DNA from: Naegleria gruberi
Lineage: Eukaryota
Reading direction: 5' to 3' (one strand)
DNA length: 64,000 nucleotides
NCBI GenBank assembly: GCA_000004985.1
Contig: GG738896.1
Of this stretch, positions 38,712-60,600 are shown in pieces. The notes under the pieces were generated by a model. It made no database searches, had not been told where the DNA came from, and saw only the letters and a program-made list of their open reading frames with translations. A program made the position numbers and the translations under genes. How positions within the stretch are numbered: position 1 is the first letter of the stretch; every line of letters begins with the position of its first letter.

Positions 38712-38968
38712 ATAGTTAGTTACTACTCTAACCTTTAATAGCAAACATGTTCAATAATATTGTATTAATATTAAGAATAATTAAAAAATATTTTAAATTG
38801 TATTCGGAATTGAAAAACAATGAAGGTTACCTCCCTCTCGATGATCAGGTACCACAACTCCTATTAGAAATTAAATTAGAGGGGTTCCATTTCCCCTCTC
38901 TATTTGTGTTGTTTTGCCAACAGGTAAAAACGATCAAAACAAATTACAGATATTATTATTTAAAAAAA

Positions 38969-40087
38969 ATGTGTGAGTATTCCGATGATCGACTCGTAGA
39001 TATTATCAATCTTGAAATTAAATTACAAAAGGAATGGTATAGTGATACGATAGAGGGTGATATTCGTTTAGAAATTAAAGAAAATTGTAATCAAGTTATT
39101 CGTATTAAAGATATTACTCTCTTTTTGCAGGGATTAGAAAAATTAGAGTATCAAGTGGAGGGTCCGAACCGATCTTTGGCTTGGAAATCTGATGAAAAAA
39201 AGGTACTACAAAGTGAGGTACCGATCGCTGGAGATGGGAAATTAACAAAAGGTCCTCATGTTTATTCTTTTTCAGAAAGATTACCAACCGATATTCCTGG
39301 ATCATTCTTTGAGGAAACCACTTATCTGGGAAAACAGATCAAGGCTCAGATATCTTACTTTGCATCATGTGTTGTTGAACTAAGGGTGGGAAATGAAAAA
39401 GAGTCTCAACATGTTACAATTCACAAACAATTTGAAATTTTTGAAAAATTAGGTGATAGAATGGCTAACAATTTGTTTGCAAGCAGAAATAATCAATCAT
39501 GTGGATTATTGTGGAAAATATCATCGAGAAGAAATATTTACTGTCGAAGAGACAAATGCCAATTTTATTCAGAAGTATTGAACGAAGGCATCTCTTCTGT
39601 ATCATTTATTACTGTCAGATTGCTGCAGATTTTAAAGCTTAACATGGAGAAACAAAATACATCAGAGAATATTATGTTAGAGGTCTATAAAAAGACCTTT
39701 AATGGTATCCTGCCAAAATGTAAAGATTTGAGAAATATCACATTTGATTTACATCCAGATCTTGTTGATTATTTCCTCTATCCACAAACAACTTATGGAA
39801 GTCTTATCAGAGTAGAGTACATGCTCCAATTTTCACTAGATAATTTGATTGAGATCAATATTCCAATAGAGGTTTTATTCAAGCAAGACATTCCAGTAAG
39901 ACCTTTATCTAGAAACACAATATCATTGACTGATCATGAAAAGTCCAATAGAAGAAAATCAAAGAGCTACTACGGAGAGCTTGAAGATTATGAGGAATCT
40001 GTCGTGTTAAATGATCCAAAAGATCAAGATAATTATCACGAAGTAATTTCATTAGAGAAAAATACTGGCTGTTGTACTATTCAATAG
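38969..40087 (+). CDS. Arrestin-domain-containing protein (arrestin N and C domains)
   Basis: Arrestin-like strands appear: ..ITLFLQGLEKLEYQVEG..KGPHVYSFSERLPTDIPGSFFEETTYLGKQIKAQISYFASCVVEL.. and ..YMLQFSLDNLIEINIPIEVLF. The probable start is MCEYSDD; the track ORF 38747..40087 extends upstream into AT-rich sequence. Confidence 0.6.
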   Translation: MCEYSDDRLVDIINLEIKLQKEWYSDTIEGDIRLEIKENCNQVIRIKDITLFLQGLEKLEYQVEGPNRSLAWKSDEKKVLQSEVPIAGDGKLTKGPHVYSFSERLPTDIPGSFFEETTYLGKQIKAQISYFASCVVELRVGNEKESQHVTIHKQFEIFEKLGDRMANNLFASRNNQSCGLLWKISSRRNIYCRRDKCQFYSEVLNEGISSVSFITVRLLQILKLNMEKQNTSENIMLEVYKKTFNGILPKCKDLRNITFDLHPDLVDYFLYPQTTYGSLIRVEYMLQFSLDNLIEINIPIEVLFKQDIPVRPLSRNTISLTDHEKSNRRKSKSYYGELEDYEESVVLNDPKDQDNYHEVISLEKNTGCCTIQ

Positions 40088-40237: not shown

Positions 40238-40310
40238 GCCGACATAGCTCAGTTGGGAGAGCGTAAGACTGAAGATCTTAAGGTCCCTGGTTCGATCCCT
40301 GGTGTCGGCA
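40238..40310 (+). tRNA. tRNA-Phe (anticodon GAA), 73 nt, no encoded CCA
   Basis: GCCGACA-TA-GCTC-AGTTGGGA-GAGC-G-TAAGA-CTGAAGA-TCTTA-AGGTC-CCTGG-TTCGATC-CCTGG-TGTCGGC-A. The acceptor, D and anticodon stems pair perfectly. The anticodon loop CUGAAGA gives GAA. The sequence is close to other eukaryotic tRNA-Phe, with one T-T mismatch in the T-stem. It is followed by a T5 Pol III terminator. Confidence 0.85.
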
Positions 40311-40637: not shown

Positions 40638-42248
40638 TTACCAATAGTTATTACAGCTACAAATTCCATTCTTAAAATGATGAAATCTCTTGGCATCCCT
40701 GACAATAATTTCGCAATCCATCACTTTAGAAATAAATGCTGTTGCTGAATGACAATCATTGCAAACCCTCAGGTTTGTGGTTAATAATATTTTCTTGCGA
40801 TCCTTATTCAACACAAAAGCATGAGCAATTGCTGTTTTTTCTGAATGCCTTAACAGGGCTTTAACTCTTTCGTCTTTAGTCTTAAACTCTGTATTTGGTA
40901 CCCATCTTACATCTGGCACATAACCTGCTTTGATGATTTTTCTGAAAATTTCATCTCTCATTTGCTCAACCTCATTGAATCTGTCAAAATTATCATTGCC
41001 AGATACAAATTTGTAGGTTATTCCATTTTCTTCGTGATACACAATGCCGGGCATTACCTGAATACCCTTTTCTTTCATTAGCTCTCTAATTTTATTTGCC
41101 TTTTCAACAAGTCCATAGTTCATGTAAATATGTGATAATAAATAGGCAGAAGGTTCCAATTCATCGATGGATATCATTATTTTGAATACTCTTTCTCCTA
41201 GCTCTAGGTTATTGAATTTTCTACAACCACACATTAAAGTATTCCAAAGTATATAACTATCATCATGATCAATTACACTTTCTGCCTGTTCTAACAGTCC
41301 TTTTCGTGCCAATGCATCTACCATAGCACATTTATTATGTATGGATGGATGCTTAATTGAGGAAAATACTGAATATACATGCTCTACCATTCCAGAATGA
41401 GAAAGAGCATTCAGCAGAATTGTGAAAGTTTTTTCTGTAGGTTCAATATTCTTTTCTATGAATGAAATGTAAAAATTGAATGCTTCAGATCCCTCACCAT
41501 GATGTGCGAAAACAGAAAGGATGTTATTGCATGTTTCAATTGAAAGAGCTTTTTCATATTTCAACAATTCATCAAAAATCTGTTTGGATGCTTCTAACTC
41601 TCCAATTTTTGAAAAATAAAGAGCTATCGAAGATTGTATTATTTCATTATTGTACAACCCATTATCTTGAATGTGTTTTATCACTCGGTTACCACTGTCG
41701 GTTGATACAAATCTAGAACATGCTTGTAACAAAACAAGATATGTTACAATATTGGGTTGAAAATTTTGCTTCAGCATTTCGTTAAAAACTGTAAAAGCTT
41801 CATTAGCATCACCTATCTCAATAAAAGCCTGTATCAAAGCAGTACAGGTTCCGACATTAACTAGACCTGCCTCACAAAACTCATCGTATAAATCAACTGC
41901 CACATATGGTTTACCACACTTTGTGTAAAAGTTCATGATGGATGTTGCGAGCTCAGTAGTAATATTCTCAATAACATCTGGAATCATTCGGTGAATTTCT
42001 ACTCCTTCCTCATATAATCTATTATCTGCACATCCTTTCAGTAAAATTGTAAATTTAATGTCATTTGGTGATATGTTGTTTCCTTGCATTGTTGTAAAGG
42101 TTTGAATAGCTGTTGAAATGTTTCCAGCGCTAATATATGCTTGGAGTAAACAATTCCATGAACCAATATCTACTCCTCCTGTCTTTTTCAGTTTTTCAAA
42201 CTCCTCCATCGCGAGTTCAGGATGGCCACATTTTGTGTAAAATGACAT
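40638..42248 (-). CDS. DYW-type pentatricopeptide-repeat protein (PPR + E + DYW cytidine-deaminase-like domain), a putative organellar C-to-U RNA editing factor
   Basis: The 536-aa ORF has ~10 PPR/PLS-like motifs (..FYTKCG..A..F..M...G..P...T..), an E-like region and a C-terminal DYW domain with conserved HSEKTAIAHAF and CNDCHSATAFISKVMDCEIIVRDAKRFHHFKNGICSCNNYW (the zinc-binding HxE and CxxCH are intact; the terminal NYW replaces DYW). It starts abruptly inside a PPR motif with no targeting peptide, so it is probably continuous with the upstream PPR ORF 42419..43537. Confidence 0.85.
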   Translation of the reverse strand: MSFYTKCGHPELAMEEFEKLKKTGGVDIGSWNCLLQAYISAGNISTAIQTFTTMQGNNISPNDIKFTILLKGCADNRLYEEGVEIHRMIPDVIENITTELATSIMNFYTKCGKPYVAVDLYDEFCEAGLVNVGTCTALIQAFIEIGDANEAFTVFNEMLKQNFQPNIVTYLVLLQACSRFVSTDSGNRVIKHIQDNGLYNNEIIQSSIALYFSKIGELEASKQIFDELLKYEKALSIETCNNILSVFAHHGEGSEAFNFYISFIEKNIEPTEKTFTILLNALSHSGMVEHVYSVFSSIKHPSIHNKCAMVDALARKGLLEQAESVIDHDDSYILWNTLMCGCRKFNNLELGERVFKIMISIDELEPSAYLLSHIYMNYGLVEKANKIRELMKEKGIQVMPGIVYHEENGITYKFVSGNDNFDRFNEVEQMRDEIFRKIIKAGYVPDVRWVPNTEFKTKDERVKALLRHSEKTAIAHAFVLNKDRKKILLTTNLRVCNDCHSATAFISKVMDCEIIVRDAKRFHHFKNGICSCNNYW

Positions 42249-42418
42249 AACAGTATTATGTTAGTTAGTACTAATATTCAGTAGCAGTTTTTGAGCTTGG
42301 TTATGTATCCTTTTACCCTCATCAAATAGTCTGTGGTGTGTGCAAGAAGTTAATAAAATGGATTCATCGATACTATATCTTGGAACTGTGTAATCCAAGC
42401 ACATTTAAGTAGAAAAAA

Positions 42419-43537
42419 CTACAAAAAGGCCCTTATGGTTTTAAGCGAAATGGAAAAAAGAACTGGCTTACCACCTGACAGTACTACATACGGTTTATTA
42501 CTTGGAGCTCTTGGAGAAAACAACTTATACTTATATGGAATAGAGCTTGTTAAATGTATTCCTTTATTGAATATTCCACAATCTGGTTTGATCCCAGTCT
42601 CTATCATTTCATATAAACTCTCTATAGCTTTCTTCATATTATTCATTTCTATAAAAGATTGAATTAAACATGTCCAAGAAATTACATCCATTTTTCCATG
42701 TTTTTGTAATTTCATGCACTCCTCATTCGCCAAAGAGTGGTTTCCACATTTGGAAAAGAATGAAATTAGACTTGAAGACAGTTGCAAACTCTCAACTTTT
42801 GATTTCTGGATTATTTCGTATAACTTCATTCCTACACAAACATTATTGCATCTAGTTGCTTCTTTTAGAATGGGAATGTAAACTCCAAAATTAGGTTCAA
42901 TTCCATTTTGTTGCATTTTGAGTATAGCACTAATTGTTTCATTTAATTGACCGTTCTTGATCATACTCGAAATCAGAGATATAAACGAATAGACTGTACA
43001 TTGTCCTTTCTCAATTAAAATATCAACAACTAGTTCACATGATGAGGTATCTCCAATTTTGGAGTAATACTGTAAAATTGCATTGTAAGTAAAGTAGTTT
43101 GGAGCAGCCAAATTCTTGTTTACAATTCTTTCGAATAACCTTACTCCTTGTTTTTCATAATTTGGATGACTAAGTAAATGTTGAATGGCAAAATTCCAAG
43201 ACTTTTCTTTAAGTTTTAGTTCATCATCTTGGTTTAGGCAATCAAACAAGTTTGACAAATCAAGTAAACACTCTTCTAGCTCCTTTTTTTGATTTCCCGA
43301 CACTTTGCACTTGTGAGTCATTGCCAAACATATTTCTATCATGTTGGTTGGTAATAAGTCTTTCTGTTGTTTTGATTTTCGGTAGATTGTAAATAAATTA
43401 TCAAACGAAGCCCCATAGCCCACTAATTCTCGGAAGGTGCTGCTGTTGGTAGTGGTAGAATAATATTTCTTTCCTAAATTCTCAAGAAAGGCTTTCATAG
43501 ATGTGCAAGTCTTCCCTTTGAAAAGTTGTGATATCAT
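42419..43537 (-). CDS. PPR protein with a presequence-like N-terminus; probably the 5' portion of the DYW-PPR gene
   Basis: 372-aa ORF. It starts MISQLFKGKTCTSMKAFLENLGKKYYSTTTNSS (basic/hydroxylated, mito-presequence-like) and carries ~8 P-type PPR motifs (..TYNAILQYYSKIGDTSSCELV..; ..VYIPILKEATRCNNVCVGMKLYEII..; ..MKKAIESLYEMIETGIKPDCGIFNKGIH). The last ~40 aa are non-PPR junk, so the real exon probably ends near 42535. Confidence 0.7.
   Translation of the reverse strand: MISQLFKGKTCTSMKAFLENLGKKYYSTTTNSSTFRELVGYGASFDNLFTIYRKSKQQKDLLPTNMIEICLAMTHKCKVSGNQKKELEECLLDLSNLFDCLNQDDELKLKEKSWNFAIQHLLSHPNYEKQGVRLFERIVNKNLAAPNYFTYNAILQYYSKIGDTSSCELVVDILIEKGQCTVYSFISLISSMIKNGQLNETISAILKMQQNGIEPNFGVYIPILKEATRCNNVCVGMKLYEIIQKSKVESLQLSSSLISFFSKCGNHSLANEECMKLQKHGKMDVISWTCLIQSFIEMNNMKKAIESLYEMIETGIKPDCGIFNKGIHLTSSIPYKYKLFSPRAPSNKPYVVLSGGKPVLFSISLKTIRAFL
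42435..42550 (+). pseudogene. Antisense PPR-like gene fragment (~1.3 PPR motifs) lying between the two minus-strand PPR ORFs
   Basis: The plus-strand reading MVLSEMEKRTGLPPDSTTYGLLLGALGENNLYLYGIELVKCI fits the PPR consensus (..M...G..PD..TY..LL.A..). The same DNA read on the minus strand gives non-PPR sequence. Confidence 0.3.
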
Positions 43538-43987: not shown

Positions 43988-46111
43988 ATGGCCCAAGTTG
44001 AAACTTACAAATTCCAAGCCGAAATCAATCAATTGATGAGCTTGATTATTAATACATTCTACAGCAATAAGGAAGTCTTTTTGAGAGAGTTGATTTCCAA
44101 TGCTTCAGATGCTTTGGATAAGATTCGTTATATGAGTTTGACTGAACCTTCAGTTTTGGATACTGAAAAGGAATTGTGCATTCATTTAATTCCTGATAAG
44201 GTAAACAAGACATTGACAATTAGAGATACAGGTTGTGGTATGGCCAAGCACGATTTAATTAATTGCTTGGGAACTGTTGCAAGATCTGGAACTAAACAAT
44301 TTATGGAAATGCTTCAAGCTGGTGCTGATGTTTCCTTAATTGGTCAATTTGGTGTTGGTTTCTATTCTGCTTACCTTGTTGCTGATCGAGTTGTTGTCAC
44401 AACTAAACACAATGATGATGAACAATACATTTGGGAATCATCTGCTGGTGGCAGTTTTACAATTACTTTGGATGAAAGTGGTGAAAAATTGTCACGTGGA
44501 ACCAAGATTGTTCTTCACATGAAAGACGATCAATTAGAATATTTGGAAGAAAGAAAGTTGAAGGATTTGGTAAAGAAGCACTCTGAATTTATTGGTTATC
44601 CAATCTCTTTACAAGTTGAAAAGACTGAAGAGAAGGAAGTTGATGAAGATGACTCCATGTCAGATGATGAAAAGAAGGACGAAGACAAGAAGGAAGATGG
44701 TCCAAAGATTGAAGAAGTCAAGGAAGTAGATGACAAGAAAAAGAAGAAGGTTAAAGAAGTCAAGAAAGAGCTCGAATTGTTGAATAAGAACAAGCCATTG
44801 TGGACTCGTGATCCAAAGACTGTCACTAAGGAAGAATATTCCAGTTTCTACAAGGCATTGACAAATGATTGGGAAGAACATTTGGCTGTCAAGCACTTTT
44901 CAGTTGAAGGCAACTTTGAATTCAAGAGTTTGTTGTTCACACCCAAGAGAGCTCCATTCGATCTATTCGAACCAAAGAAGAAACTCAACAATATCAAACT
45001 CTATGTTAGAAAGGTCTTTATTATGGATAATTGTGAAGAGTTGATTCCAGAATATTTGAATTTTGTGAAGGGTATTGTTGACTCTGAAGATTTGCCATTG
45101 AATATTTCCCGTGAACACTTGCAACAAAACAAGATTATGAAAGTTATTAGAAAGAATTTAGTCAAGAAGTGTATTGAAATGTTCACTGAACTTGCTGAGA
45201 ATAAGGAAGATTTCAAGACTTTCTATGAAGCATTTGGAAAGAATTTGAAATTGGGTATTCATGAAGATTCTCAAAATAGACAAAAGTTGGCCGAGTTATT
45301 GAGATTCCACTCCTCTCAAACTAAAGGTGAAGATTGGACCAGCCTCAAGGAATATATTGAACGTATGAAGGAAGGTCAAGAATTTATCTATTACATTACT
45401 GGTGAAAGCAGAAAGGCAGTTGCTAGCTCACCATTCATTGAAAAGTGCACCAAGAAGGGAGTTGAAGTCTTGTACATGACTGATCCAATTGATGAATACA
45501 TGGTTCAACAATTGAAAGAATTCGAAGGCAAGAAATTAGTGTGTGTAACAAAGGAAGGATTGAAATTGCCAGAAACTGAAGAAGAAAAGAAGAAGAAGGA
45601 AGAATTGAAGGCCTCATTCGAAGCATTGTGCAAGTTGATGAAGGATATTTTGGGAGATAGAGTTGAAAAGGTTGTTGTTTCTGATAGACTTGGTGATTCT
45701 CCATGTTGTTTGGTTACTGGTGAATATGGTTGGAGTGCAAATATGGAAAGAATCATGAAAGCTCAAGCTTTGAAGGACAATTCTATGGCCTCCTACATGG
45801 TTTCAAAGAAAACAATGGAAATTAATCCAGAAAATTCTATTGTCAATGAATTGAGAAAGAAGGCTGAAGCTAATAAGGCTGACAAGACTGTCAGAGATTT
45901 GGTTTGGTTGTTATTCGAAACTGCCTTATTGACTTCTGGTTTCAGTATGGAAGAACCTCATACTTATGCTTCCAGAATTCACAGAATGATCAAACTTGGT
46001 TTGAGTATTGATGAAGAAGATCTTGCCTCTGAAAAGACTGAAACAACAAGCCAAGAAAATAAGGTTGAAGAAAGTCCAGCTGCTGAATCCTTAATGGAAG
46101 ATGTTGATTAA
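43988..46111 (+). CDS. HSP90: Cytosolic heat-shock protein 90 (HSP90), intronless, 707 aa
   Basis: Full-length alignment-quality match to HSP90 ([22 protein letters not shown]; [39 protein letters not shown]; a charged linker; [18 protein letters not shown]). The C-terminus is ..MEDVD, a variant of the MEEVD TPR-binding motif. Codon usage is biased toward highly expressed codons (GGT/GCT/TTG/AGA/AAG). Confidence 0.95.
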
Positions 46112-51603: not shown

Positions 51604-54600
51604 ATGTCATCGTTATTTGAGGGCTTTCTCCTCAACAACACAACAAGGAGGAAACTGTTGTCATCAACAACATCTCTTCTCTTCTTCCTACTCTTGTGCA
51701 TTACATTCTTCTTTTCAACAACGTGCCTTGTTGATGGTGAAAGAATAGATTTTTTTCCATCTACTATAGTAAGCTATGGTGACCAATCTTTTTGCTCTTC
51801 CATGTCCAGTAATTCCTATGTAAGTTTTAAAGAAGGATTTTCTTGTTATTAATCGGACTTTATGGTTTTTCCCTCCAAAATTTATGATTGTCTTGACAAT
51901 GAATTTGAAAAAATGTGTTGATATTAATTTTATTTGGCTTGCTATCATTGGATTTTCTCTGATCATGTGAACAATATGATGATAAATAATAATATTACTT
52001 TCGGAATGGTATAGAAATCATTTAAAAATCCAGTTTCATATCCAACACCTGGATGGCAATTATTATATTTCCAAGGATTTAATTGCCCAAAGAATGGAGT
52101 TCCTGAAGGAATTAGTGATCGTAGTTATGGACAATTGCGTGTTGGATATAATCACATTATTGCTTTTCAAGTGAAAAGTAATAATGGAACACAAAAATTA
52201 AATATTGTAGGAAAAGGTGATAATACAGTTGGTCAATTAGCTATTGATAGATATATTTCTGGTGGAGTCAGATATTTTGCCAATATTACATTTGAAATTA
52301 ACTGGGGAGAGATGGTTAGATTAGTACAAATTGAAGATTTAATAACATCAAGAACTATTGCAAATAATCAAGATGTTGCTAAACTTCAAACTTATGATGC
52401 TTGGGATTCTAATCTTTATTTTGATAATATTAAGGGACACTATTTCCCTGATAATATTATTATTCAAGATATTAATACTTGTTATTTAAATACTTTTATA
52501 ATTTTAAAGAATCAAGAAATTTATGGAACTGGTTCAAATATTTACAAAAGTTTAAGTTTATCAAACGAAAATAGCAAAAGTAACTCTCCTATAAGATTAA
52601 CAATTTTGGAAAATTTTTTAAAATCACAAAGTGATTGGATTGATCAACTTTATTGTGGTTATTCATCTGTTTTTATTAAAACAAAAGCTAATAGAATTAT
52701 TGTATTTGGTAGAAATGATGTAAATCAATTAGGTCTTGGATCTGAATTTAGAGCAAATTCAATTACTCCAACAATTCATCCATTTTTAACATATTATTCA
52801 CAAAATATTGCAAATCTTGATACTATTTCATTTGGTTTAAATTTTACTTTAATTTCATTCAAAGATGGTTCAGTTTATTGTGCTGGTTTAAATAATCACC
52901 ATCAATGTGGTCTTGGTATTAATGAATATACAATTTCAAATTTTGTTCAAGTACCAATACCAGAAAAGATTACAAAAATATCAACAACAGCATATGCATC
53001 ATTTTTTGGTATTGAAACTGGTGAAATATTATCTTCAGGATGGAATTTAGGTTTTATTTTAGGACAAAATATTACTGATGAAAATTATGTTTCATCTACT
53101 CCAGTTAAAATTGAAAATTTAATTTCTCCAAATGATTATCAACTTTCAAAAGGTTTTCAATTATTTCATATAACTTATCAAAATGCAACATCAACTATGG
53201 CATGGGGATCAAATCAATTTTATAGTTCTGGTATACTTTATCAGGGTACTGGAACAGCTGCTTATCCAACTATTTTAGCATTGGGCAATGTGGAACGTGC
53301 TGTTTTAGAATCTATTGCAAATCCATCTGAATGTATTTTAGTTGGTGGTCATGCTGCTGCTAATGGTTGTTCCAATAGTTTATTACAAAGAATTAATTTA
53401 AAAACAGGATTTAATACTACATTTGGTGAATTTCGTTCATATTGCAGTAATTTTGGTACTTTTAATTATTCTACAGAAGTTTGTTCATGTGATGAAAAAC
53501 ATTATGGATATTCATGTCATTTAATCAAACCAGAATTTTTAGGAAATTGTAACCAATCAAGTTTAGAAAATTTTGCTATTGCTCCAAATACATGTTATTG
53601 TGGTGGAGAAGGTTTTTATGGAACATCTTGTGAAAATAAGGCACCTCCTAGATCTGTTTACAGTTTTACTAGATCTTTAAATATTCAAAAATTTACTCTA
53701 AAAAATAAGATGTTTGATTTTGGTTATTTAATAAGTGGTCAATCACATACATTTTTAAAATCTCAATTGAATAATAATAGAGTTTATGTATTTGGTAATG
53801 GATTGAATACAAATGATAAATATGGAATTGGTTTGGCTAGTAATAATATGATAAGTGATACTATTCAAATTTCAACATTATTTGAAAGATTATCAAAGAA
53901 ATTAACTTCTTCAATAAGAAATATTTATCCAATGAAAATTCAATCAGTTGCATTATTTAGTAATGGAGATATTTATAAGACTTTAAATAATTCAGATTTT
54001 GAAATTATTGCAAGTAATGTTAAATATTTAACATGTTCAGATATTACATGTTTTTTTATTACTAATGATAAGAATGTTTATGGTATTTTTGATAATCAAT
54101 ATAATCAACTTGGTTTAACTGATTTTGCAACAAGACAAAAAGTTTATGAATCTCAACCTGTTTTAGTATCACTTTTAAATAATAATTATCATAAGGAGAT
54201 TGTTAATATTTATCCTTCAAATTATTTTACATTATTTGTTAATCAATTTGGTAATTTATTTGGTATTGGTAAAAATACAGAATATCAATTAGGTATTGGA
54301 CATAATTTAAATATTGATAAGTTTATTATTCCATTAATAATTGAAAAACCTGTTTCACATGTTATTGTTACAGAATCTATTACATATTTTAAAGAATTAA
54401 ATTCTGTTTGGAAAACAATGGGTAAAGATATTTTAAATATTGCTCCAATTTCTCAATATTTAATTTATCCAACAGTAATAACATCTTTACAAGAACAAGA
54501 AAATATTTATAGAGCTAAAGGTGATATTATTATTACTCAAACAACAACTAAATTTAGACAATTAACACTTAATCAAGACCTTTCATATGGTCAAGAAAAA

Positions 54601-57600
54601 ATTATTGATGTTAATATTATGGGAGATGATATTATTTTAGTTACAATTCCAAGTAATTTTAATTCTATACTTTGTTATAATGGTTATTTAGATATTACTG
54701 GTACTTCATGCATTTGTGATAAAGGTTTTAGAGGAATTGATTGTAATTCTTATTTATGTGATAGAGTAACATGTAATTCATGTATTGGACCAAATATATG
54801 TTCTAAAAATCAATCTACAACAACAAATGAATTGAGATTATTCTCAAAAAATTATGGAATGATACAATCAAAGTTTAATGTTAAACATCATACTATTGGT
54901 GATAATTTTGCTATATTTATAGATTATGATGGTGAAACTAAATTTATTGGTGATAATTTTTATGGTGAATTAGGAATGGGTGGTTATTCTTCAATTAGTA
55001 TTAGTACCTCAAATTTACAACTTTTAACAAATAATATTTTACTTTTACCAATTTATTTAGCTAATGAAAATGTTAAATCAATTACATCTGGCAATAATTT
55101 TATTATTGTTTTAACAGAATCAGGTAATTTATTCTCTGTTGGTGATAATAGATTTGGTCAATTAGGTCAAAATGATACTATTAGTAGATATTTTTTAACT
55201 AAAATAGAAAGTACAATAACTTTTACAAGTGTAACTTGTAATTCTTTTCATTGTATTGCCTTAGGATCAAACAACAAATATTATGGTTGGGGAGATAACA
55301 CATTTGGTCAATTATGTTTAGATTCAACAACTAAAAAGGTTGTTTACACACCTTCACAAATTATATTTGATGTTATTATAGATGTTGTATCTACTTCAAT
55401 TATGTCAATTGGTCAAAACTCTTCAATATTTTATAGTAATAGTGGAGATGTGATTGCTTGTGGTAAAATAACAGTACCATCAAATTATGCTGATAAATCA
55501 GTAAGACAAAGAGTTTTACCAAATTTCAATATTGATTTACAAGCTATGGAACAAATACCAAGAAAATTCTATACCGATTTATGTTTAAAAAATTCTAATG
55601 AAGAATATTACTGTTTAGGTGAAAACAAATTTGGTACTCTAGGTTTTGGTCATGCTTTACCTCTTTATGGAATTTTTTTATCAAAACATTTTGGTGTTGA
55701 TGGAGGATTATTTTTCCATACTCACACTAATAAGATTAATTTCTATTATTCTAAAAACAAAATTTTAAATTATTTTGGTAATGGTGATTTATTGAATGAT
55801 ATCAACAATATGAATCCAGCAAGACAAACAAATGTTTTTCAATCAATTGGTAAATTTAGTTTCATAACATCAAATGAGAAATTTGGTTATATAATTACAA
55901 ATACTAGCAATTGTTTTAATAGAGGATATTTTTCTAATGGAATTTGTACTTGTAATAATATTAAATATTTAGGTGATGAATGTCAAACAAATACTAACAT
56001 TCCACAAGGTACAACTTCTCAATTCCAAATAATTGATACTTTAGGTAATAATTTTAATTTTACTAATAAGTTTGGAAGTATGTCAAAAATTGAAACATTT
56101 GGTAATTTACCATTTGGTTTTAATAATACTAGAAATAATTTAAGAGTTGTTAGTACCTTTAATTTGGCATTAAATCAATCCACTTCTCAACTTGCACTCA
56201 TTTTTGCTATTGATAATTATGCTAATTTAAACGTTGACATTCAATTTCCAAATAGTGGGAAAATTAGTAAACTTCAAACAAGATTGGAGGAAGGATCTGA
56301 TTACATTTATCATACAATTACTACTGATAATATAGATACTAATGCAATTATTCAAGTAACATATACAACAAATAATTCAGTAATTTTAGATAGTGATATG
56401 AAGAACCAATTTCTTAAAGTTTATACAAGAAATGAAAAAAATAATATTATTCCTATTGGATTGAAATCTAGCTCTGAATTATTATCTGAAGTACTTGCAA
56501 GGTTGAATTTCCTTTTTTCTATTAATGGTCCACATACTGCAGAAATTTCCTCTATTGAAGAATTTCCATGTGATCTAGATGGTAATAATAATGTGATAGG
56601 TCTCAGATTAGATGGAAATTTTTTCAATTATACATTTTATCCAATTCTAAAAGATGAATCTTTCCGTACTTTAAAGAACTTTTACAGCTCAAAAATTTCA
56701 TCAATTAGATATCCTATTCATGAAACATTTAATTTTGCAGAAAGTGATATTAGTCTCATTAATTTATCTAATAATAATAATCTTGAACAATCTGCAGGTT
56801 ATTATGATTTATCACCAGTTAAAAGAACAAATATTTTAATTAATGTTTCAAAATCAAAGATTTGTGATATTCCATTTGCTGATTTATTTATTAATCCTTC
56901 TAAATATAATTTTACAAATACTAATATGTATTGTATGAAACCAATTTTTGATAATTCTTGGTGTAAACCATTAAGTTTTAGAGAAAGTACTTTATACTTG
57001 ACTCAATTTTTTGTTTCTACAAAATTAAGTATTCCACTTGCACTTTGTGACTCATGTTCTATTTTAAATTGTTTTGATTTTTTAACTCAAAATACTTCTA
57101 GATTATCCTATTATTTTGTTTACCCAGATAATAATAAGATTATTTCTAATAATTTTAATATATTTGAAACAAGAAAGGATGTAAATGTTGATTTATTATT
57201 CAATGAATTTAATGAAAATAATTTCCTTAATTTTGATTATATTAATATGGGTATTATTTATAAATATGATTCTCCTATTGGAATACAAGAATTAAAAGGA
57301 ACTATCAAATTACAATATTTGAAATATTTACAAAGTTTCAATTTTACACCTATTGTACTTGCTAGAAATAGTGATAATATTGTTACAATTAAAAGTGAAA
57401 ATATGAAAGATTTCATAAAATATAATCAAGTTTATTGTAAAACAAGAATTAGTGAAGAAATAATTACTTTGGATGACAATGATAAATCAACTTCCTATTG
57501 TAATATTAGAACTGGTATTGAATATAATCAAAATATAACAGTTCAATTAATGGCTTACCCTATATCAGGAAATAATCCTTTTAAAATTGGAGAATTTAAT

Positions 57601-60600
57601 GTTTATGTTTTAAATATAACACTTATTCCAAATATTATCAATAAGTATTCTACAAAATATCCACAATTAATATTTATTAATTCTGATTTTACAACAGGAA
57701 GCTTTTTATCAAATTCTAAATTAGAATTTATGGAAAATGGTGAAACTGTTTATAAGATTGATCAACTAAAAATTAGTTATTTCAATACTTTATCCATTAC
57801 TGCAGATATTTATAAACAAAATCTTGACATGTATTTAGATAATGTAAATTTAGGATATTTTACTTCTCAAATTGTTTATAAACAAGTCAATTTAGAAAAA
57901 ATTATTCCATCCTTAAGTTTTAATACTGAAGAGATGCCTACAATTTATTTAGATAGAGAAATTTATTCAAATATTCATTCAAATATTCAGTATAGATGTT
58001 TAGATACTTTAACAAATACTTCATATTCTGCTCAATACTTAAATTCTAGAATAATATGTAATATTAATAATTTACCTACAAATAATGTAAAATTATTAGA
58101 TTTAATTGTTCAAATAAGAATTTATTCATTTAATGATAATGAATGGTTTACATATAGTAGTAATAGTGTTAAGTTTTATCATTTAATTTCTAATATGAAT
58201 ATTTCTTTAGCAGAAGGATCACAAACCTTTTCAAAATGTCATTATTTATCTTCTAGTACAACAGGTTTCACTCCAAGAATTAAATTAAATGAAATTGTTT
58301 TACCTGAAAGTGAAACTTATAGATTTTCAATATGCCATTATAATAGGTTAAATGAAATTGTTACCTATAGATCTAATTATTATAGAGATAATTTATTTGA
58401 AGCATCAGGATTTACTTTATATCTTAAAAGTGGTTATTCTAATATTTATTTATGTGCTGACTCAATGATTGTATCAAAACCAGTTGTAGTTTTTGTTATT
58501 AATCAAACAGATTATGATTCCAAACCAATTTTTGGTTTTATTGGTTCTGATATTTGGTCTGGTTATATTTTCCATCATCAACCACTTTATTCTGATTCTC
58601 TCTTCAATTTAACCTATTCTTGTGCCTTATTTGGTGATGTTCAAAATTATACTGTTTATTCAACAGATTTAATTACAAACAAAATTGATAATTATTATGT
58701 AACAAGATGTATTTTCACTGGTTTAAATAATATTATCAAACAAGAGGCAGGTTTTTATTTTTCATTACTTGCAAAGAGAGGATCAGAAACTGTTCAATTA
58801 CCAGCTACTTTTATTAATTTCATTTATGGACCAAAACCTACAAATTATTCTACTCCATTTATTTCTCATATTCCATATTCTGGTTATATTTCAACAACTT
58901 TATTAACACAAGATCAGGATAGAGATTTATTTGTTTCTAAAAATCAAAATGGATTTTTTAGATTAACTCTCCCAATTGATTGTTTGTTATTTAAAGTTGG
59001 TGGTACTTATCCTATTGCATCTGCACCACTTGATACAACATCATCAACTCTAAAATGTGATTTAACTAAATATACAGTTACAAGCAGTGAACCATTCGAA
59101 ATATCATTAGGTTCACTTGTTACAGAATATTCTTATTTTGTAGAATTTACATCAAGAACTGTACATTTCACATATTTGAATAAGATAGAATTTAACTTTG
59201 AAGGCTATCCAATTTTAGAAACTGGAAAATCTATTCTTCTAAATTATTATACTAACAAACTTCCTCAATACAAACAAACCCAATTGAATGTTACTATGTC
59301 TGCATTAGGACAATACCCCATTATCAAGTCATGTGATTTTGAACTTACAGGATCTTGTATAGTAGATTATAATTTAACAATTCCAATTACTCCAGTTTTA
59401 CAAACTTACATACTTCAATTTTCATTTATTATTAATGAATTTTTATTGAAACAAACATTGAACATTGAAAATACATTGTTCAATAACAGATTTAATGTAA
59501 TGTACTATTCACCATTCCTCTTTGATTTTAAAACTGATTCAAGCATTTACAATTTCAAGTTACAAATTGATAATGGATTAAATCCTGATTTCAATTTTGA
59601 TCTTGATACTGATGGTATTAGAAGAAGCATTTTTTATGGTTTGAATAATGATAGTATAACAGAAGTTACTTGCTCTAGAATTAGTAATTATAGTACTAGT
59701 ATAGCATCTAATTTAGAAACAAGAATTGTATCAACATTTAAAGGAATTACATTTTCTGTTGATAAGAAACCATCAACTATTTACCTTAGAGAACTTTACA
59801 CTACACCAAATATTGTCTCTCAATCAATTCAAAAAACTATTAATATTACTCTTACTACAGATATTGCTATTCAAAAACCTCTAAAGAAGTATTATATTTC
59901 TTTATTAGATAATAAGTATGAATGTAGTATTGAATCAACATCTTTGATTTGTCCTGTTTTAATTACATATATTGGTAATCCTTTCTACAAGGAAGTTCTT
60001 AAAATTTTAGATGGTGATAATGTTGTAACAAGGATTGGTTTACCATTTATCCTATTCAAACCAATTTCTATTCGTGAAGTTAAACCAACACTTCTACTTC
60101 AAGATAATAACTCTGTTAATACTACAGTTTTAATGGAGCAAACAGTTTTTGAAGATTTAGGAACAGAATTTATATTTTCTTGTTCCATCGAAGATGGTAA
60201 CTTCTCAGCTATTGTTGGTGATTCTAACTCTGTTAGATGTAATTTCAATAACTTGAATACTGGAAGAAAGAGTGTAAAAATTTATCTTTCCTCTAATAAT
60301 CAATACAGATCCATCAAGGAATTATTATTAACTGATATTAATCCAGCAAAAGATTTTGAAGTTATTAAGAATCCAACCATAGCTCTTGATAATTCTATTG
60401 AGCAAAAAACTTTATTCTATACTTCTGAAACCTTTTCATTAACAACTCTTAATATTCTAGTTACAAATACTGAATTCACTTTGAATAATATCTTGTATAA
60501 CATTTCTACTGAAATTGGTTTTTATGGAAAAAACAGCTTTGTTGAAAGTACTACTTATTTGGGAAAATTTGATACATCATACAAATTCCAAGTATCATTT

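Follow-up and report, generated by a model that had tools for sequence, protein, structure and literature searches.

Two long open reading frames (ORFs) that lie one behind the other on the minus strand of a 64,000-nucleotide stretch of Naegleria gruberi DNA (contig GG738896.1 of assembly GCA_000004985.1; the whole stretch is called the window here) raise the question of whether one gene, two genes or the pieces of a broken gene occupy positions 40638–43537. ORF1 (42419–43537, 372 amino acids) carries pentatricopeptide repeat (PPR) motifs, and ORF2 (40638–42248, 536 amino acids) ends in the DYW cytidine-deaminase domain of plant-type editing factors. The original prediction, which was made from the sequence alone, gave most weight to a single gene interrupted by an intron of about 280 nucleotides and named a disabling mutation as the alternative. 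Our analysis reverses this preference, the disabling mutation being the better-supported option of the two. On balance, we judge the locus to be a rearranged, probably recently disabled or truncated member of the N. gruberi PLS-E-DYW family (P, L and S motifs followed by E and DYW domains) and not an intact intron-containing gene. The copy in the reference genome most likely can no longer make a full-length, targeted PLS-E-DYW protein.

Two reading frames and a paralogous locus

ORF2 is identical over all 536 amino acids (100% identity) to an annotated N. gruberi protein (XP_002672651.1, EFC39907.1, NAEGRDRAFT_72252, UniProt D2VTC6), whose public entry, on a 331,721-bp scaffold, reads "predicted protein [Naegleria gruberi]". 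The host is thus a heterolobosean of the Discoba, and the amoebozoan-like genome that had been proposed must be given up. An accession search of the literature, including the supplements of PMC4202320, turned up no reference to this gene. In Pfam, ORF2 contains at least six PPR repeats, an E motif at residues 345–402 (PF20431, 38.7 bits against a cutoff of 27.3) and a DYW_deaminase domain at residues 442–536 (PF14432, E = 7.6e-34, 115.9 bits against a cutoff of 24; positions 40641–40925, minus strand). Combining the Pfam hits with a motif-by-motif walk gave a layout that starts in an S motif, continues through three more P-L-S rounds to the L2, S2, E1 and E2 motifs and ends in the DYW domain, amounting to about 10 PPR-type motifs plus E1/E2 and DYW. 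The walk stayed in register with triplets of P35, L36 and S33, so that ORF2 has the PLS array and the E1/E2 motifs of DYW-type PPR editing factors.

The zinc-binding HxE...CxxCH residues and the C-terminal CxC...(D/N)YW that mark such factors are also present in ORF2. On the minus strand, the HSE zinc and catalytic motif lies at 40836–40847, CNDCH at 40749–40763 and the C-terminal HHFKNGICSCNNYW at 40641–40682; a PG-box-like segment, PGIVYHEENGITYKF, precedes the domain at 41007–41051. The last 220 residues of ORF2 matched the solved synthetic PPR-DYW protein 9kfx from end to end (E = 3.6e-51), and the Arabidopsis structures of the OTP86 DYW domain (7o4e, E = 1.1e-25) and of DYW1 (7w86) likewise aligned end to end. 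In the alignment to these solved structures, the set of DYW catalytic residues was complete. Identity to plant proteins was about 30–32% across the whole of ORF2. The original prediction was therefore right to see in the 3′ ORF an intact DYW deaminase domain and in the gene a PLS-class, DYW-type PPR gene akin to those of plant editing factors. It was right, too, that this ORF begins in mid-motif and lacks a targeting peptide: its first residues, MSFYTKCG, lie inside an S motif, its start codon is an internal S-motif Met (compare ..SIMNFYTKCG in the next S motif) and, judged by composition only, acidic residues prevail among its first 30 (4 K/R versus 5 D/E).

The upstream ORF has the presequence-like start and the PPR repeats that had been ascribed to it. 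Its first 323 codons (42569–43537, minus strand), here called segment A, form the 5′ part of the ancestral gene, as judged from the open frame, the Pfam PPR hits and a collinear match to a paralog. Segment A opens with a presequence-like N-terminus (MISQLFKGKTCTSMKAFLENLGKKYYST...), continues with a non-PPR region of about 110 amino acids and then with PPR motifs, and ends with a P motif followed by four residues (CGIF) that begin an L motif. Pfam recognized PPR_2 in ORF1 (E = 2.9e-16), with about six PPR motifs in all. By composition only, the start of ORF1 is basic and Ser/Thr-rich, with 5 K/R versus 1 D/E, and that of the paralog has 6 versus 0. Beyond segment A, ORF1 continues into an out-of-register tail (42419–42568, minus strand), whose translation consists of 49 non-PPR codons followed by a TAG at 42419–42421; in tblastn, the frame of this tail beyond 42569 showed no homology to the paralog. 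At the local base composition, frames of 323 and 536 codons would stay open by chance with probabilities of about 4e-12 and 1e-19, respectively.

Segment A is absent from the public protein sets: a search of about 15 billion sequences turned up neither an exact match nor any protein above 50% identity. At least this one PPR ORF is therefore missing from the N. gruberi annotation. A k-mer protein search with ORF1 returned a single weak match, and an exhaustive HMMER search with residues 1–323 against 1.84 billion representative proteins recovered the collinear paralog. By far the top match was NAEGRDRAFT_45423 (XP_002682649.1, P0036 in our set; E = 4.2e-128, 38% identity), residue 50 of the query being collinear with residue 27 of the protein. 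NAEGRDRAFT_45423 directly adjoins NAEGRDRAFT_45424 on the same 1.0-Mb scaffold, and NAEGRDRAFT_45424 (P0002, 822 amino acids) is the closest paralog of ORF2 (47% identity). At the paralogous locus, an N-terminus like that of ORF1 is thus followed by a PLS array and an E-DYW end, which is the architecture expected if ORF1 and ORF2 were once one gene. When NAEGRDRAFT_45424 was compared with our region by tblastn, three homology blocks appeared: 43171 to 42569 on the minus strand, in the frame of ORF1; 42357 to 42548 or 42578 on the plus strand; and 42362 to 40641 on the minus strand, in the frame of ORF2. Judged from this homology, and in agreement with the earlier proposal, which treated the two same-strand ORFs as parts of one gene, ORF1 and ORF2 descend from a single gene of about 897 codons.

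The insert, the inverted fragment and the stop codon

The tblastn boundaries and exact excision located the break in a 206-bp insert at 42363–42568, which lies within an L motif, between the codons for Phe322 (42569–42571) and Ser323 (42360–42362). On the gene strand, the insert begins with AATAAAGG... and ends with ...GATGAA, so that it has no GT-AG ends. Excising exactly 42363–42568 fused ...ETGIKPDCGIF with SILLTSCTHHRLFDEGKRIH... and gave the best junction score of all candidates. The reconstructed product of 897 codons aligned with NAEGRDRAFT_45423 without a gap from about residue 139 to residue 416, an interval that spans both the Phe322|Ser323 junction and a stop codon described below. 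In the reconstruction, the P-L-S register (steps of 35, 36 and 33 residues) was unbroken from residue 181 to the L2 motif. The original prediction had instead proposed to restore the register by joining ..NKGIH to SFYTKCG.., a junction at which most of an L motif would be lost; it is the joining of ...PDCGIF to SILLTSC... that restores it.

Since the length of the insert is not a multiple of three, the reading frame is shifted and ORF1 runs through its 49 nonsense codons to the TAG. On the far side of the insert, in the frame of ORF2, homology to the paralog identifies 114 nucleotides (42249–42362, minus strand) as stranded former coding sequence that completes the L motif (SILLTSCTHHRLFDEGKRIHNQAQKLLLNIST) and opens an S motif. 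This linker contains an in-frame TAA at 42261–42263, 33 codons past the insert, at a position where the paralog has Leu; the ATG of ORF2 follows four codons beyond it. What had been taken for an intron of about 280 nucleotides is thus a 206-bp insert that lacks GT-AG ends, followed by 114 nucleotides of collinear former coding sequence with a stop. In the present copy, no continuous frame runs from the targeting N-terminus through the PPR array to the DYW domain; comparison with the paralog indicates that the ancestral gene had one.

The antisense PPR fragment between the two ORFs, which had been placed at 42435–42550, proved genuine and longer. This fragment B (42357–42578, plus strand; Pfam, tblastn and translation) comprises NGFID from the end of an S motif, a complete P motif (TISWNCVIQAHLSRKNYKKALMVLSEMEKRTGLPPD) and roughly two thirds of an L motif (STTYGLLLGALGENNLYLYGIEL...); the tail of ORF1 runs through it in antisense. 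Pfam scored it as PPR_2 (47.8 bits against a cutoff of 30, E = 1.6e-12) on the plus-strand stretch from 42357 to 42548 and up to 42578, and its tblastn match to NAEGRDRAFT_45424 had an E value of 4.5e-12. Its WNCxIQA signature and its best matches are those of the N. gruberi DYW family, with just 34–38% identity to any unit compared; identity to the adjacent P motif of ORF1 was 46% over 41 residues. In a k-mer search, none of 5.8 billion proteins shared three 5-residue words with it. As had been suggested, the fragment indicates a local rearrangement. It is not a gene in its own right: two stop codons lie directly upstream of it, and its first ATG is internal, at 42435.

We also considered how fragment B could have come to lie where it does. 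An inversion in place was rejected, as flipping the fragment gives the order P-[4 amino acids of L]-P-L-L-S, which breaks the register. Since flipping fails and removal restores the P-L-S order, fragment B behaves as an inserted, inverted piece. Fold-back template switching through inverted microhomology at the junctions was likewise rejected, since the observed score equalled the mean of the null and was reached by 64% of random window pairs. By inspection, the insert has neither terminal inverted repeats nor a target-site duplication of the kind found at transposon ends.

By analogy with plant homologues and solved structures, an intact member of this family would be carried into the mitochondrion by its N-terminal presequence, would read the RNA sequence just upstream of a target C with its PLS array and would convert this C, which lies a few nucleotides 3′ of the bound stretch, into U with its zinc-dependent DYW deaminase. 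Two lesions appear to have interrupted this design in the N. gruberi copy. One would be the 206-bp insert with its inverted P+L PPR unit, which landed inside an L motif and shifted the frame, and the other the TAA nonsense codon 33 codons further on. The presumed outcome is an unannotated 5′ ORF of 372 codons with a predicted targeting signal, about six PPR motifs and a nonsense tail, together with an annotated 3′ ORF of 536 codons that lacks a targeting signal.

Separate genes, intron or artefact

Several observations weigh against the view that the gene has simply been disabled. No stop interrupts the homologous codons of either long ORF (323 and 536, respectively); the only one falls in the short linker. 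If one stop were placed at random among the 574 codons downstream of the insert, it would hit the first 34 in about 6% of cases; for the linker as such the chance comes to about 4–6%, and this calculation is partly post hoc. Open frames of this kind would be expected if the break were very recent or if selection still acted on the two halves as separate genes. Relative to the paralog, no additional divergence is seen in the stranded linker, whose identity is 34% compared with 44% and 27% in the flanks. A donor for fragment B was not found by blastn, tblastn and a repeat search in the window, by the k-mer search or by blastp against the retrieved proteins; the best candidates reached at most 46% identity as protein and about 73–81% as DNA over at most 41 nucleotides. 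In addition, unusual splicing, readthrough or separate expression of the two ORFs may occur, and the TAA, which is known from a single assembly, may be a base-calling error.

Under a rival explanation, gene fission, both halves would be in use: ORF1 as a mitochondrial PLS-type PPR protein that lacks a deaminase, and ORF2 as a short PLS-E-DYW protein made from its own start, the two perhaps acting in trans. We consider this unlikely. It would explain why both ORFs are wholly open despite the interruption, with the only stop inside the 38-codon linker, and why the DYW catalytic residues of ORF2 are all intact. ORF1 lies 450 bp from a divergent HSP90 gene, which makes a shared promoter region plausible, and the closest paralog is likewise annotated as two adjacent models, one with the N-terminus and PLS motifs and the other with PLS motifs, E and DYW. 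However, ORF2 would have to start at an internal S-motif Met with an acidic N-terminus that does not resemble a presequence, no promoter of its own is evident, and ORF1 would terminate in its 49 nonsense residues. The paralog, moreover, is split at another point. NAEGRDRAFT_45423 ends in ELSQHNY and a stop, which, as far as can be deduced from the proteins, resembles a one-base frameshift of the repeat consensus ELSNTIIN and suggests an independent lesion or an assembly error, not an architecture that has been conserved. Statistically, the hint of selection is weak (p about 0.04–0.06) and partly post hoc.

Two more speculative readings, which we regard as improbable, go a step further. In one, the fission would have been retained, with a targeted, PLS-only ORF1 and a short PLS-E-DYW ORF2 that work independently or in trans; in the other, the 206-bp fragment would be a very young intron that arose from an inverted duplication of exon-like sequence. 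In plants, E-class PPR proteins cooperate in trans with DYW1, DYW2 or MEF8-type proteins. If true, a retained fission would be a protist parallel to the partnerships of plant E-class PPR proteins with DYW1/DYW2-type proteins.

A single functional gene, in which a spliceosomal intron covers the antisense PPR fragment and the TAA is a sequencing error or is bypassed, would account for the intactness of both flanking ORFs. We enumerated all GT-AG, GC-AG and AT-AC pairs around the break that put ORF1 in frame with ORF2. As a local reference for splice sites, we used three introns inferred from ORF continuity in the window, at 17.68 kb (plus strand), 47.6 kb (minus strand) and 48.47 kb (minus strand), which are 47–63 nucleotides long, start with GTAAGT and end with (A/T)AG; one of them splits the signature motif of an ABC transporter (after ...TRG). 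The exact 206-bp insert has no GT-AG, GC-AG or AT-AC ends (they read AA...AA), so that its precise excision would have to proceed without splice dinucleotides. Near the junction, just one canonical GT-AG pair (42579–42386, 194 nucleotides) restored the frame of ORF2 without adding stops, but its donor, GTGGAA, shares only the GT with the donors of the three reference introns, its length is three to four times theirs and the L motif would gain four residues. Manual reading also pointed to GTAAGC near 42470, a donor closer to the consensus, which could use the same acceptor at 42386 in frame but would leave about 40 non-PPR residues within the L motif. The TAA at 42261–42263 stayed in frame under every candidate splice. 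There is no AG between this TAA and SFYTKCG, and the NKGIH to SFYTKCG junction of the original prediction accordingly lacks an acceptor. The paralog, in contrast, has an uninterrupted coding sequence at the same position. At 42.25–42.57 kb, therefore, we found no intron boundaries whose removal restores a continuous homologous frame. Because the insert lacks splice ends and every splice retains the TAA, a single continuous gene would need two separate ad hoc repairs, and we hold this explanation to be very unlikely.

That the real gene is continuous and the inverted segment, the stop or both are errors of the draft genome is similarly doubtful, for although the sequence comes from a single draft assembly and the closest paralog pair also looks interrupted, within near-identical tandem repeats of an error-prone kind, the insert here sits exactly between two codons with unique, diverged sequence on either side and not in a near-identical repeat, the units within the gene are at most about 46% identical as protein and at most about 73–81% over short DNA stretches, and a 206-bp inverted block of otherwise unknown sequence would be an atypical product of misassembly.

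Genomic surroundings and known systems

On the far side of the 450-bp intergenic gap upstream of ORF1 lies the divergent HSP90 gene (43988–46111, plus strand), which is intronless, of the cytosolic type and 707 amino acids long (Pfam E = 1e-233). The opposite strand carries, downstream of the DYW gene, a tRNA-Phe (GAA) gene (40238–40310, plus strand), about 330 bp from the stop codon, and an ORF of 446 amino acids with arrestin N and C domains (38747–40087, plus strand). No further PPR or DYW sequence was found elsewhere in the 64-kb window. Between 52000 and 60000, the GC content of the window drops to 23–27%, compared with about 33% in the remainder, and no ORF of at least 250 amino acids is listed beyond 51057; the stretch from 52000 to 60000 may be gene-poor or repeat-rich.

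The plant-type editing that the original prediction read from this gene is correct for the organism and has been known for about 15 years, according to passages of PMC4202320 and PMC5421314. These two papers cite the publication of 11 DYW-type PPR genes in N. gruberi (Knoop & Rudinger 2010) and the verification of two C-to-U editing sites in its mitochondria (Rudinger et al. 2011), and describe the DYW family as a probable acquisition from early land plants through horizontal transfer. Both the genes and the editing have thus been on record for this species since 2010–2011. What is added here is a corrected description of NAEGRDRAFT_72252, whose public 536-amino-acid model represents what is left, at the 3′ end, of a gene of about 897 codons. 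The 5′ 323 codons of that gene are unannotated, and an inverted PPR fragment and a stop interrupt it. The corrected description should be of modest use when the number of functional DYW genes in Heterolobosea is compared with that of editing sites (11 genes versus 2 sites), and the locus serves as an example of the rearrangement of a PLS array.

Among the N. gruberi DYW-type PPR proteins, ORF2 shares the PLS-E-DYW architecture of NAEGRDRAFT_45424 (47% identity) and NAEGRDRAFT_66503 (49%). It differs from them in that the NAEGRDRAFT_72252 model is limited to the 3′ 536 codons, and no protein model that we found represents the 323 homologous codons upstream, the 206-bp inverted insert or the in-frame TAA.

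A second comparison is with the paralog pair NAEGRDRAFT_45423 and NAEGRDRAFT_45424 (XP_002682649.1 and XP_002682650.1), whose N-terminal region is collinear with ORF1 and whose E-DYW end is collinear with ORF2, and which is also annotated as two adjacent models. The paralog has many near-identical PLS triplets of 104 amino acids, about 10 in the two models together, whereas the NAEGRDRAFT_72252 gene consists of diverged single units. The near-identity of these triplets suggests recent tandem amplification or concerted evolution at the paralogous locus. There is no inverted insert at the Phe|Ser position of the paralog; its break lies at another point and, as judged from the proteins, looks like a one-base frameshift, and the paralogous locus may thus itself be broken or mis-assembled.

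With the land-plant PLS-class DYW factors (OTP86, DYW1 and the synthetic 9kfx), the gene shares the order P-L-S...L2-S2-E1-E2-DYW, the PG-box-like segment, the HxE and CxDCH motifs and the C-terminal HxxxxxxCSCxxYW. It differs from them in its host, a heterolobosean protist, in its NYW instead of DYW C-terminus and in its S motifs, which have 33 and not 31 residues and so give triplets of 104 residues in this gene. Unlike the land-plant factors, moreover, the N. gruberi copy is interrupted.

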